From the IMG/VR virus record IMGVR_UViG_3300045988_168012: a stretch of 15,497 nt of DNA; one strand, written 5' to 3'. Below the pieces are notes generated by a model, which did no database searches, was not told the origin of the DNA, and saw nothing but the letters and a program-made list of their open reading frames with translations. How positions within the stretch are numbered: the first letter of the stretch is position 1; each line of letters begins with the position of its first letter. The position numbers and the translations under genes were made by a program. This DNA is from a virus. Positions 2,236 to 15,497 of the stretch are shown here, piece after piece.

Positions 2236-2661
2236 ATGAAAAATATCTCTGTATCGAACGTTCAGGAATACAACATCAACGGGAAAGTGGTTATCCGCTT
2301 TAACCCGATGGATACCGGCTTTGTAAAGCGGTTTCTTGCAGCGTGTGAAGAGCTGGCAAAGCGTCAGGAGGCTTTCGGCAAGGAAGCGGAGGAAGCCCCG
2401 GCGGATAACTTTTTCCCTGTCGCGGAAAAGTCGGATACCGATATGCGCGAGATCATCAACGGGCTTTTCGGCGAGGATGTATGCAAGCCCATTTTCGGGG
2501 AAATGCACCTTACGGCGCTTTCGGACGGTCTGCCGGTCTGGTGCAATCTCATGCTTGCGTTCATGGATGAGATCACGGAAACGGTCGAAGAGGTCAAGGG
2601 CAGCAAAGCAGAAGTCAATCCGAAGCTGCAAAAGTATCTCGCAAAATTCGACAAGAAATAA
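2236..2661 (+). CDS. Hypothetical acidic protein (141 aa) directly downstream of the tape measure gene; possibly tail-associated
   Basis: GGAGG at 2224-2228, 7 nt before the ATG. Clean ORF followed immediately by a hairpin terminator. I cannot assign a motif with certainty. Confidence 0.7.
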   Translation: MKNISVSNVQEYNINGKVVIRFNPMDTGFVKRFLAACEELAKRQEAFGKEAEEAPADNFFPVAEKSDTDMREIINGLFGEDVCKPIFGEMHLTALSDGLPVWCNLMLAFMDEITETVEEVKGSKAEVNPKLQKYLAKFDKK

Positions 2662-2688
2662 AAGCGGGGCATATTGCCCCGCTTCTTC
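2662..2688 (+). terminator. Hairpin terminator after the tape measure operon
   Basis: aagcggggca (2662-2671) pairs with tgccccgctt (2675-2684), followed by cttc. It sits directly after the stop codon at 2659-2661. The T tail is weak. Confidence 0.6.
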
Positions 2689-2690
2689 AC

Positions 2691-2730
2691 GCTTCGTAAC
2701 GCTCCGTAACGGTACGTAACGCTCCGTGGC
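2691..2730. repeat. Four tandem 10-bp units: gcttcgtaac / gctccgtaac / ggtacgtaac / gctccgtggc
   Basis: Read directly from the sequence. Exact 10-bp period with a shared CGTAAC core, in non-coding DNA. Confidence 0.8.
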
Positions 2731-2786
2731 TATGCGCTTGTTCGTTTCGCAGATGGATTTATAGCTTTGTACCAGAAAGTTTGTAT

Positions 2787-2844
2787 TAAAAATCCCCGGT
2801 ATCAAACGATACCGGGGGGGACGCTGGATGGAATCGAAACCCGC
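2787..2844 (-). ncRNA. Candidate small RNA B (about 57 nt): promoter plus intrinsic terminator with no ORF
   Basis: Minus-strand promoter TTGCAT-17-TATACT (2851-2879). Downstream is the hairpin ccccggtatc/gataccgggg (2794-2817) and then AUUUUUA on the minus strand. There is no start codon with an RBS in between. The transcript contains a C7 run. Confidence 0.4.
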
Positions 2845-2850
2845 ACAAAT

Positions 2851-2879
2851 AGTATACCGCACTTTCCGGGAAAATGCAA
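2851..2879 (-). promoter_or_regulatory. Sigma-70-type promoter (minus strand), TTGCAT-17 nt-TATACT
   Basis: Plus-strand agtata at 2851-2856 and atgcaa at 2874-2879 with an exact 17-nt spacer. Paralogous to the promoter at 2983-3011. Confidence 0.5.
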
Positions 2880-2884
2880 TAGAT

Positions 2885-2976
2885 AAAAAACCCCTCTGGC
2901 ATCCTAAGACACCAGAGGGTAAAAAGAAAGGAGGTACCCTGCCGATCTCGCTTTCCTGACGGTCGATTACTACACA
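2885..2976 (-). ncRNA. Candidate small RNA A (about 92 nt): promoter plus intrinsic terminator with no ORF
   Basis: Minus-strand promoter TTGCAT-17-TATAAT (2983-3011). The hairpin ccctctgg/ccagaggg (2892-2919) is followed by U6 (plus-strand A6 at 2885-2890). No plausible ORF. The transcript contains the CU-rich stretch ACCUCCUUUCUUUUU, which is anti-Shine-Dalgarno-like. Confidence 0.45.
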
Positions 2977-2982
2977 ACGCAT

Positions 2983-3011
2983 ATTATACCGCATTCCGTG
3001 TGATAATGCAA
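2983..3011 (-). promoter_or_regulatory. Sigma-70-type promoter (minus strand), TTGCAT-17 nt-TATAAT
   Basis: Plus-strand attata at 2983-2988 and atgcaa at 3006-3011 with an exact 17-nt spacer. Confidence 0.55.
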
Positions 3012-3054
3012 GAGTTATTTATACGCTTTTTCTTTTTCTGTATAATTAAACTAT

Positions 3055-3102
3055 TGCAAGCAATTGATAGCAATTGAAAGCATCTGTATACAATTGCTTG
3101 CA
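3055..3102. repeat. 12-bp inverted repeat tgcaagcaattg / caattgcttgca, with three CAATTG palindromes
   Basis: Inverted-repeat arms at 3055-3066 and 3091-3102. CAATTG at 3061, 3071 and 3091. Non-coding DNA between the sRNA-A promoter and the 3' end of the TA operon. Confidence 0.7.
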
Positions 3103-3169
3103 GATTGCAGCAAAAGGGAAACCGGCGCAGAGCCGAAGCCCTACGCCGGTATTTACGCTCAATCTTCTG

Positions 3170-3364
3170 TTAACCCCATACGGAAGCATGGGAAACGGTT
3201 TCCCCGCTATCGTATTCCTTGCGAGCTGCGGAGATCGCCGCTATATCGTCGGGCGTAGCAACATCATCCGAAACAAAGCGCCGGACGATCTCAAGCAAAA
3301 GCGCCTGTTCTGCCTCTGGCAGATAGTCTATCATGTGGTTTAACTGATCTCTTACCGGTGACAT
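3170..3364 (-). CDS. Putative antitoxin partner (64 aa) encoded downstream of the RelE/ParE toxin
   Basis: GGGGGTG RBS. The ATG lies 3 nt after the toxin stop, so the two form an operon. The protein is small and acidic with a C-terminal ...TPDDIAAISAARKEYDSGETVSH segment like short antitoxin or accessory proteins. No HTH is visible. Confidence 0.5.
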   Translation of the reverse strand: MSPVRDQLNHMIDYLPEAEQALLLEIVRRFVSDDVATPDDIAAISAARKEYDSGETVSHASVWG

Positions 3365-8025: not shown

Positions 8026-9408
8026 ATGGCAAGCATACGGAAGATAAGCGAGAACAGTTACAAGGTCACGGTATCACGCGGCAGGGACGCAGGAAACAAG
8101 CAGATACGCCATTATATGACGTGGACGCCGGAAAAGCCCATGACAGAAAAGCAGATGGAAAAGGCCGTGCAGAAAGCGGCGTATGAGTTTGAGAAGCAAA
8201 TAGAACTCGGCTTTAGGCCGGACGATAGCCGGACGTTCCGGGAATACGCAGAGTATTTCATAGAGCTGAAAAAAACGCAGGGGCATACAGCGGGAACGAT
8301 TCGCGGGTATGAGTGGGTAAAGCGGCGGGTTTATGAGGGTATCGGCGATATGAAACTTGTAGACATTCGACCGCACCACCTAAACAAGCTATACGCAAAG
8401 ATCGCGCAGCCCGGCACAAGAATAAACCGCTTGTACTGCTATCCCAAAATTGAGATCAGACCGTTTGTAAATAGCTTTGGAGGCGTCAACAGGGTTAGCA
8501 AAGACAGCGGAATAAATACGGACATAATTACCCGCGCTTGCCGTGGGGACAGGCTTACACAAACCGCCGGTATGCGTCTGGCGTCGGCTCTCGGTCTGGA
8601 CTTCAAGGCCGCATTTCGCACGGAGGAAAACAAAGACACGCTTACAAATGCGATGATCGAAAAGCACCATGTCTTTGTGCAGATGGTTCTTGATGAAGCA
8701 GAAAAGGACATGATAATCATGTACAACCCGGCGAGGCGTGCAACCGTCCCGAAACGAAAGGCGGAGCCGAAGAAAGATAAATGCTTGCAGCCCGAAGAGC
8801 TTAAAGCGTTTCTTGACGTTCTCGACGGTGAGCAGATCAGAACTAAGGCGATGTTTTACACGATGATCTACACCGGAATGCGGCGCGGCGAGCTATGCGC
8901 CTTGCGCTGGGATAAGATCGACTTTGAAAAAGGGCAGATTCTTATAGACGCTGGCATAACTTACACGAAAGAAACCGGTATAGTATACGGGCAGACAAAA
9001 ACCGGAAACGTCCGGTATGTTTCTATTCCACCGGCTCTTATTTCCACCCTTAAAACATATCGGAAATGGTTTATTGAAGAGCGTTTCCGGCTATGCGGTG
9101 CGTGGGAAGATAGCGGCTTTGTATTCTGCCGCTCTCTCGGCTCTGTCATGGCGCCAACAGATGTTAATATTCTTTTATCGAAGCTCTGCGAGCGGCACGA
9201 AGTCCCACACATACACCCGCACCAATTCCGCCATACCGCCGCAAGCCTTATGATCGCCAACGGTACGGACGTGGTAACGGCGGCGGGCGTTCTCGGCCAC
9301 AAGAACACAAAAACAACGCTATCCGTATATGCTCACGCGATAGACACGGCAAAAGAAAAGGCCGCAAATACTATGGAATCGGCTATAGAGGCTTGCAAAA
9401 TCGGATAA
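8026..9408 (+). CDS. int: Tyrosine recombinase / phage integrase (460 aa)
   Basis: AAGGAGG RBS at 8010-8016. Arm-binding-type N-terminus MASIRKISENSYKVTVSRGRD. Catalytic signature TGMRRGEL (Arg), HQFRHTAAS (H-x-x-R), LGH, and TLSVYAH (Tyr). The 7867 start in the track is an upstream extension overlapping the KTR gene. Confidence 0.93.
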   Translation: MASIRKISENSYKVTVSRGRDAGNKQIRHYMTWTPEKPMTEKQMEKAVQKAAYEFEKQIELGFRPDDSRTFREYAEYFIELKKTQGHTAGTIRGYEWVKRRVYEGIGDMKLVDIRPHHLNKLYAKIAQPGTRINRLYCYPKIEIRPFVNSFGGVNRVSKDSGINTDIITRACRGDRLTQTAGMRLASALGLDFKAAFRTEENKDTLTNAMIEKHHVFVQMVLDEAEKDMIIMYNPARRATVPKRKAEPKKDKCLQPEELKAFLDVLDGEQIRTKAMFYTMIYTGMRRGELCALRWDKIDFEKGQILIDAGITYTKETGIVYGQTKTGNVRYVSIPPALISTLKTYRKWFIEERFRLCGAWEDSGFVFCRSLGSVMAPTDVNILLSKLCERHEVPHIHPHQFRHTAASLMIANGTDVVTAAGVLGHKNTKTTLSVYAHAIDTAKEKAANTMESAIEACKIG

Positions 9409-9477
9409 AACATGATATAATACTAAGCAATCGAATGAAAAAACGTGCATGGAAGAAATTCCCGCACGAATGAGCCT

Positions 9478-15149: not shown

Positions 15150-15497
15150 TTGAAAGATATTCGGTTTAAGGTCGGCATAGACGATAGCAAGGCGGCGCGG
15201 GAGCTTGCCGCGCTGAATCGCGCTATTGATAATCTGAAAAGCAAGATCAACGATGCGGCGCAAGCGAAAATAAACCTTGCCCCGCAGCTCGACGAGGCAA
15301 AGCAGAAAGCCGAAGAGACGGCGGCGAGCGTGGCAAAGCTGAAAGAACAGCTTGCAGCGAGCGAGGCAAAGACCAACAGACAGGGGAAAATACGCGCCGT
15401 TGATTTTGTAGAACAGGAAAATATTAAAAAGCAGCTTGCCGAACAAGAGGCGATTTTGGAGCAGCAGAAGAACACCGTTTCAGAGCTTCAAAAAAAC
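15150..15497 (+). CDS. Tail tape measure protein, N-terminal part (TTG start); continues into 100-2217 through the terminal overlap
   Basis: In-frame stop TGA at 15141-15143. The only start is TTG at 15150, with GGTGGTG 7 nt upstream. Translation MKDIRFKVGIDDSKAARELAALNRAIDNLKSKINDAAQAKINLAPQLDEAKQKAEE... is coiled coil. The frame is continuous with frame 1 at base 1. Confidence 0.8.
   Translation, partial: MKDIRFKVGIDDSKAARELAALNRAIDNLKSKINDAAQAKINLAPQLDEAKQKAEETAASVAKLKEQLAASEAKTNRQGKIRAVDFVEQENIKKQLAEQEAILEQQKNTVSELQKN
15399..15497. repeat. Terminal overlap, identical to 1-99
   Basis: See feature 1-99. Confidence 0.97.

Follow-up and report, generated by a model that had tools for sequence, protein, structure and literature searches.

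The IMG/VR virus record IMGVR_UViG_3300045988_168012 (15,497 nucleotides (nt), hereafter the window) carries two short cassettes on its minus strand, each running from a promoter-like sequence to a terminator-like hairpin, in a non-coding gap of ~500 nt between two convergent gene blocks. Most probably, these cassettes are genes for small regulatory RNAs of an unexceptional type, and we treat them as candidates. In our preferred interpretation, to which we would give a probability of roughly 0.55, they specify two independent small non-coding RNAs (sRNAs), U1 and U2, and U1 most likely acts in trans, through a CU-rich box (CU box), on Shine-Dalgarno (SD) regions of host or helper-phage mRNAs. 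We infer that the units are transcribed, where their transcripts end, that U1 acts in trans and what kind of target it has. A preliminary description of the window had placed such a pair between a RelE/ParE operon and the terminator of the tail operon, and this is where the gap between the convergent blocks lies.

The first unit starts with the promoter P1 (TTGCAT-17-TATAAT, 3011-2983) and the second with P2 (TTGCAT-17-TATACT, 2879-2851), both of which are found exactly where they had initially been read. Each shows the sequence features of a sigma-70/SigA promoter, namely TTGNNN, a spacer of 16-18 nt, a TATAAT-like -10 hexamer and conservation in relatives, and each would thus be a housekeeping-sigma-type promoter driving one short RNA. 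Conservation refers throughout to an alignment of 21 distinct alleles (window included) of a 350-nt region from related ~15-kb elements, retrieved from IMG/VR, JGI/ENA metagenomes and Logan assemblies, mostly as 13-16-kb contigs and from the human gut where a source is stated (L numbers below denote loci).

Predicted U1, which probably starts at G2978-G2975 and ends within the U-tract 2890-2885, folds at -32.1 kcal/mol (z = -2.6 compared with shuffled sequences). Its layout would comprise a fast-evolving 5' domain, an invariant CCUCCUU box and, directly 3' of the box, a strong terminator (T1), whose 5' arm contains a second CCUC(C/U) box (CCUCC or CCUCU). The T1 stem begins ~60 nt past the P1 -10 hexamer and is followed by U6, in agreement with the preliminary description, which had however counted 8 base pairs (bp) in a stem that has 12. 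The T1 hairpin reaches -20.0 kcal/mol on the minus strand versus -14.8 kcal/mol on the plus strand, where the U-tract is absent; two tandem G·U pairs of the minus-strand stem would turn into A·C mismatches there.

Predicted U2 (probable start at G2846 or G2844, probable end in the U-tract 2792-2788) folds at -23.6 kcal/mol (z = -2.7 compared with shuffles). The 10-bp hairpin and U-tract reported after P2 are confirmed: the terminator T2 has a perfect stem, a folding energy of -18.5 kcal/mol and an AU5 tail, with the U-tract on the minus strand only, and one T2 allele has a U·G pair. Both terminators thus combine a G+C-rich stem-loop with a U-tract on the transcribed strand, as intrinsic terminators do, and T1 and T2 rank 2nd and 4th among the terminator-like sites of the window. 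The C7 run of U2 had been proposed as a pairing stretch, a proposal that we abandon. The uninterrupted length of this run (2820-2814) varies from 4 to 8 among the 21 alleles (C5-C8 plus interrupted forms, e.g. TCCCC), and the T2 stem takes up four of the Cs; the run is an unstable homopolymer and a poor seed candidate, and it fits slipped-strand variation, not a conserved motif. No conserved seed was identified in U2. The P2 spacer includes a 9+9 near-palindrome, GCATTTTCC-C-GGAAAGTGC, and a hairpin was flagged at 2881-2855. Separately, the T2 loop (2804-2807) is exactly inverted (GTTT to AAAC) in L002, L004 and L120, and the loop of the bidirectional terminator that closes the tail block (2672-2675) is inverted (AATA to TATT) in L001 and L006, with the stems intact in both cases; such loop inversion is the signature of palindrome-mediated inversion or template switching.

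Table 1. Coordinates and allelic variation of the two units, of their surroundings and of the sister cassettes (window coordinates unless a locus is named; transcripts and terminators are predictions).
Feature	Coordinates	Strand	Variable alignment columns	Remarks
P1 -35 (TTGCAT)	3011-3006	minus	0/6	read in sequence
P1 spacer	2989-3005	minus	6/17	17 nt
P1 -10 (TATAAT)	2988-2983	minus	0/6	
Predicted U1 RNA	2978-2885	minus		~80-92 nt; ~80 nt in short allele
U1 5' body	2982-2935	minus	24/48	indels of 1, 2, 3 and 7 nt
CCUCCUU box (anti-SD-like)	2934-2928	minus	0/7	directly 5' of T1; in the window extends to ACCUCCUUUCU at 2935-2925
T1 intrinsic terminator	2919-2892	minus	2/28	12-bp stem, UUAG loop, then G + U6 (2891-2885; U6 2890-2885)
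P2 -35 (TTGCAT)	2879-2874	minus	1/6	begins 5 nt past T1 U-tract; TTGCAT in 19/21, TTGCTT in 2
P2 spacer	2857-2873	minus		17 nt
P2 -10 (TATACT)	2856-2851	minus	1/6	TATACT in 20/21, TATATT in 1
Predicted U2 RNA	2846-2786	minus		~55-60 nt
U2 5' body		minus	9/34	
T2 intrinsic terminator	2817-2794	minus		10-bp perfect palindromic stem, GUUU loop, then AUUUUUAA
P1 upstream region	3012-3112	minus		phased CAATTG repeats 3050-3105; A-tract, AT-rich stretch 3014-3045
Repeat/AT region upstream of P1 in the alignment			51/124	
RelE/ParE operon terminator	3150-3121	minus		U-tract broken (UUCCCUUUUG)
64-aa partner gene	3364-3170	minus		
RelE/ParE-type toxin gene	3610-3368	minus		
Bidirectional terminator	2660-2686			closes tape-measure/141-aa block
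141-aa PHROG-11299 gene	2236-2661	plus		
Tape-measure-like gene	58-2217	plus		runs on across contig junction
Sister cassette in L024	5250-5400			
Sister cassette in L025	2135-2290			
Sister cassette in L027	1395-1545			

The promoter pattern is not confined to the two units. TTGCAW-N17-TATAMT, with at most one mismatch, is found five times in the window, compared with 0.29 expected, and none of 200 shuffled sequences reached five. The other three copies are located at 3665-3637 (upstream of the toxin operon), at 5081-5053 (upstream of a 153-amino-acid (aa) gene) and at 9393-9421 (just beyond the 3' end of int and heading the next plus-strand gene block), positions consistent with those of gene promoters. 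The P1 and P2 segments themselves are alike over 37 nt, with 73% identity (2849-2885 versus 2981-3017), and a hand count gives 10 matches in their 17 spacer positions. The idea of duplicated paralogous units, put forward in the preliminary description, therefore holds for the promoter segments and fails for the transcribed regions, which display no similarity beyond these segments save an 11-nt match between the terminator tails. The likeness of the promoters points to a shared promoter architecture or to co-regulation, and not to a duplicated sRNA gene.

In the 21 alleles, variation falls in the spacers and transcribed bodies and largely spares the promoter hexamers, the CCUCCUU box and the T1 stem (Table 1). 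CCUCCUU is present in 21/21 alleles amid variable flanks, as one would expect of a conserved SD-complementary seed. The two variable columns of T1 pair with each other, as U-A in five alleles, U·G in one (L115) and C-G in 15, and the tandem G·U pairs are invariant in the whole set. Because of these invariant G·U pairs, of the U-A/U·G/C-G series and of the weaker plus-strand hairpin, which lacks a U-tract, the alignment indicates that the T1 hairpin is selected as a minus-strand RNA, with modest statistical weight. The U1 5' domain exists in a long form (window, L032, L114-116, L121 and L122) and a short form, each of which makes its own stable 5' structure, and both recombine freely with P2 variants. 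The palindromes of the spacers are not conserved, as seen in the P1 spacer variants and in the L003-type P2 spacer.

The same alignment bears on coding capacity. On the minus strand, the frames of 63 aa and 257 aa that cross the units are interrupted in relatives by indels (1, 7 and 2-3 nt); on the plus strand, a hydrophilic 43-aa open reading frame (ORF; 2828-2959) has acquired either a stop (CCCGCATAA) or a frameshift in several of the relatives. Coding is thus excluded on either strand by the 1-, 2-3- and 7-nt indels and the stop-creating substitution, and both units are non-coding; in agreement with the preliminary description, neither contains an ORF with a ribosome-binding site (RBS). 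After the plus-strand AAGGAGG, the complement of the CU box, no ATG, GTG or TTG occurs at a usable distance. A cis-antisense RNA of the lambda OOP type or a type I toxin-antitoxin system was rejected, as the only plus-strand ORF is broken in relatives and an RBS with a start codon is missing. We also discarded GGGTTTCGATTCC as a remnant of a tRNA T-arm or as an att site, ARAGORN having found no tRNA or tmRNA. As for a CRISPR-repeat mimic (an RNA anti-CRISPR), we know of no likeness to the common repeat types.

Related elements provide another view of the locus. In six of them (L008, L013, L115, L118, L121 and L123) the module with the tape-measure and 141-aa genes is swapped for unrelated genes (389 aa and 86 aa), and the breakpoint of the exchange falls just downstream of T2, at ~2776. 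The two units thus remain with the toxin-antitoxin side in these exchanges. Upstream of the toxin operon the elements are mosaic too, with a 348-aa gene or a ribbon-helix-helix (RHH) gene in place of the minor-capsid-like gene. Three sister elements (L024, L025 and L027) hold, at the same site as the window units, a non-homologous cassette that cannot be aligned with them. It consists, in order, of a consensus-grade promoter (TTGACT-17-TATACT), a 5' hairpin and a CU-rich terminator that carries AACCUCUUCCC in its 5' arm; in L027, an unrelated 5' hairpin is set into the promoter and terminator frame shared with L024 and L025. Both families appear to be built in the same way, with a constant frame, which includes a CU-rich box close to the terminator, and a 5' domain that can be exchanged. 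As sister elements hold either a non-homologous cassette or none at this site, it seems to behave as an accessory ('moron') slot, one that has held small non-coding promoter-to-terminator units more than once. The three sister elements are among the more distant relatives, which have an integrase/Rha/terminase/sigma-factor architecture in common and 66-71% identity in the 64-aa protein. Essentially no further cassettes turned up in a scan for promoter-plus-terminator arrangements downstream of the 64-aa gene in ~70 remoter homologs.

If U1 acts as we propose, its CU-rich box would pair in trans with the SD sequence of host or helper-phage mRNAs and block translation initiation, and the variable 5' domain would add or alter specificity. 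This anti-SD mode of action, taken by itself, is tentative. In the window allele the box is part of ACCUCCUUUCU (2935-2925), which matches, to our knowledge exactly, the 3' tail of Firmicute 16S rRNA; of this stretch, only CCUCCUU is invariant. In addition, the U-tract of the toxin-operon terminator is interrupted, and its tail is still poorer in U in most relatives (TTTCCCTTTCCCCCGG). Read-through into U1 and T1 is thus possible, and U1/T1 may also serve as the 3' end of a read-through toxin-operon mRNA. A bolder proposal is that the cassette is an RNA specificity module of a phage-parasitic or defective element, in which promoter, CU-rich box and terminator form a constant frame around a rapidly exchanged 5' domain (long and short alleles here, swapped hairpins in sister elements); this domain would pair with transcripts of a helper or competing phage, so that its exchange re-targets interference or immunity. 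We consider this proposal quite improbable.

Several results weigh against our preferred interpretation. To begin with, the ACCUCCUUUCUUUUU stretch had been presented as single-stranded, which is not supported for the window allele: most of its CCUCCUU pairs with AGGAAAG..GAG, an SD-like sequence upstream (mean unpaired probability, 0.20 in this allele and 0.37-0.62 in the others). Regulation of the element's own genes, as suggested in the preliminary description, did not survive scans of the element for exact complements and duplex energies, in which no target beats shuffled controls. The longest exact complements to the sRNAs in the element are 9-10 nt (chance level), and the best duplex energies are -36.0 kcal/mol for the U1 variable domain, -26.4 kcal/mol for the CU box and -32.9 kcal/mol for the 5' part of U2, versus mean best energies of -35.8, -26.1 and -38.0 kcal/mol, respectively, for shuffled queries. 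The int and Rha RBSs, both named as possible targets, rank 3rd and 8th of 25 and neither stands out; an extra A-rich pairing of U1 with the int RBS is not kept by the short U1 allele. A self-targeting or antisense role was rejected for these chance-level values, and so was a phage immunity RNA of the P1 c4/P4 CI type, since complementary sites in the same element do not exceed chance.

Further points on the same side come from the promoters, the databases and the alignment. TTGCAT shares only 3 of 6 positions with TTGACA, and for this reason a generic promoter scan listed neither P1 nor P2. The Rfam search that had been recommended brought no family match: Rfam 15 has no hit at the gathering threshold across the window (RsaE, Spr RNAs, riboswitches, leaders and tRNA-like families included), and at E ≤ 10 the region 2600-3250 gives chance-level hits only, the best of which, at 23 bits (gathering score 45), covers the neighbouring terminator region 2656-2762. 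Searches with nhmmer of ~120 fetched loci, using the units and the L024 cassette as queries, detected homologs in the close family only. Likewise, there was no blastn match to the 508-nt intergenic region among GenBank phages and PLSDB plasmids, no megablast match of the whole window among GenBank phages, and no occurrence of an exact 21-mer from unit 2 in GTDB species genomes. The cassette is absent from L020-L023, from L026 and from the chromosomal toxin-antitoxin copies L015-L019. Moreover, the 21 alleles are all closely related (roughly 90-95% identity), which leaves few independent events behind their invariance, and the covariation of T1 concerns a single pair, the observed value being reached in 34 of 500 trials of a shuffle control. 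Finally, the U1 body varies more than the third codon positions of the toxin gene (11/81 variable), and variation this high would also fit a decaying, unconstrained region.

Three other explanations have to be weighed. T1 and T2 might do no more than back up a leaky RelE/ParE terminator and shield the convergent tail genes from antisense transcription, the hexamers being fortuitous and sRNAs non-existent. Four minus-strand terminators indeed lie within 500 nt (3150-3121, 2919-2892, 2817-2794 and 2686-2660), the toxin-operon U-tract is interrupted and worse in relatives, TTGCAT falls under the generic promoter threshold and no sRNA target was found in the element. Yet a mere stack of terminators does not account for P1 hexamers that are invariant while spacer and flanks vary, for two hexamer pairs at an exact 17-nt spacing that matches the gene-promoter pattern of the element, for an invariant CCUCCUU box without a role in termination, or for the consensus-grade TTGACT-17-TATACT promoter of the equivalent sister cassettes, and we regard this explanation as unlikely. 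The region could instead be the remnant of a decaying moron that has lost its ORFs, whose promoters and terminators may still fire and whose RNAs are functionless and drift neutrally. Within the locus, no segment varies more than the U1 body (24/48 columns, several indels), the length of the C-run is unstable, a 76-nt indel and a variable number of repeats occur nearby, and sister elements differ in whether they have the cassette at all. The conservation is however patchy and function-shaped (hexamers, CU box, compensatory series in T1), unlike uniform drift, and much of the body variation reflects two recombining haplotypes, long and short, each with its own stable 5' structure, and not scattered decay. 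We therefore judge neutral decay to be rather unlikely.

A DNA-level role, with hairpins, near-palindromic spacers and CAATTG repeats acting as protein-binding, replication or packaging sites (an operator array, an iteron-type origin or a pac-like site), would agree with the phased 10-11-nt repeats of variable copy number and the AT-rich stretch directly upstream (3014-3105), with the 9+9 near-palindrome of the P2 spacer and with the perfect palindrome of T2, whose loop flips between relatives. It appears very improbable: at the level of DNA, or on the opposite strand, the G·U pairs of T1 and its U·G intermediate would amount to A·C mismatches, U-tracts follow both hairpins on the minus strand only, the palindromes of the spacers are not conserved, and neither a replication initiator nor a small terminase was identified beside the two-unit region. 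Two small RNA genes, the first with a CU box that would act in trans, thus remain our preferred interpretation of the locus.

The window corresponds to a circular contig, as its first and last 99 nt are identical (1-99 = 15399-15497), which gives an element of ~15.4 kb. Besides the genes listed in Table 1, it encodes a Rha regulator, a helix-turn-helix (HTH) protein, a tyrosine integrase and a large terminase (TerL); no major capsid, portal or replication gene is identifiable in it. The closest TerL relatives belong to uncultured human-faecal phages and to Blautia and Clostridium phages (41-54% identity), and an Oscillospiraceae metagenome-assembled genome (MAG) encodes one homolog of the 64-aa protein, for which reasons the host is probably a gut bacterium of the Clostridium class. 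Integrase relatives in GTDB species genomes reach only 24-34%. The toxin protein is indexed in 176 blocks of a public assembly collection, and contigs of related elements cluster at 13-16 kb; the element may represent a defective or satellite-like phage that is frequent in the human gut.

Some observations concern the immediate surroundings of the units. The 64-aa gene (3170-3364, minus strand), downstream of the RelE/ParE toxin gene, belongs to no Pfam or PHROG family. Its product is well conserved (27 sequences with an invariant DD[VI]ATPDD core), and the gene accompanies the toxin on these elements and in chromosomal contexts; presumably, it encodes the antitoxin, with the toxin gene placed first as in HigBA. 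Positions 3050-3105, located past the toxin-operon terminator and before P1, hold phased direct repeats of 10-11 nt, GC(W)(W)(K)CAATTG, accompanied by a perfect 12-nt inverted repeat (TGCAAGCAATTG/CAATTGCTTGCA), and the copy number of the repeats differs among relatives by a 21-nt (two-repeat) indel. Next to the A-tract region, this array looks like an operator array or iterons. A promoter-like site on the plus strand (3018-3046) was set aside, its -10 not being conserved (TATAAA in most relatives). On the other side of the units, positions 2680-2764 contain three to four copies of a period-10 repeat, CGCTYCGTAA, within a 76-nt segment (2689-2764) that is missing in the relatives covering it, except L003, which has one extra repeat copy.

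If they are transcribed, U1 and U2 would join a short list of sRNA candidates reported from mobile elements of uncultured gut Clostridia. An RNA that copies the 16S anti-SD tail could dampen the translation of host or helper-phage mRNAs with strong SD sequences, and the association of a conserved frame with an exchangeable 5' domain provides a testable hypothesis on how such elements retune RNA regulators. Otherwise, the cassettes would be ordinary non-coding cargo between convergent operons, with nothing contrary to expectation.

Small structured RNAs of temperate phages and their satellites include c4 of bacteriophages P1 and P7, the CI RNA of satellite P4 and OOP of lambda. The recognition loops of c4 alleles differ between heteroimmune phages, which resembles the swapped 5' domains described here. 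However, c4, P4 CI RNA and OOP pair within their own genome or overlap a gene in antisense, whereas the units here have neither an above-chance site in the element nor a gene on the opposite strand.

Closer parallels are provided by the Spr RNAs of Staphylococcus aureus, among which SprD pairs over the SD/start region of the chromosomal sbi mRNA (PMC2880579). Like the candidate units here, Spr RNAs are stand-alone genes with their own promoter and intrinsic terminator, located in accessory regions of Firmicute mobile elements; unlike them, our units come from a different host clade (uncultured gut Clostridia) and display no sequence or covariance-model similarity to Spr RNAs. With respect to mechanism, C-rich anti-SD seeds are established in RsaE (PMC6158497) and RoxS (PMC5419742). 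U1 would resemble both in being a short RNA of similar size with a strong terminator and pyrimidine-rich, SD-complementary motifs (two boxes in U1). RsaE and RoxS are however widely conserved core-genome RNAs that expose UCCC/CCCC in loops, whereas U1 is found in one mobile-element family only and its motif is the literal, 16S-tail-like ACCUCCUU, partly paired in some alleles.

Carriage of sRNAs by mobile elements is also known from DicF (PMC5069750) and svsR (PMC12803456). Both are non-coding cargo of temperate or defective phages of Escherichia coli that reprogram host genes or limit competing phages, and we infer the same niche for the units here. DicF and svsR nevertheless belong to Hfq-dependent proteobacterial systems and are unrelated in sequence to U1 and U2; moreover DicF, unlike our units, lacks its own promoter and is processed from an operon transcript. 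U1 and U2 belong to no curated RNA family; the carriage of sRNA cargo by Firmicute temperate-phage-like elements is, in itself, already known.

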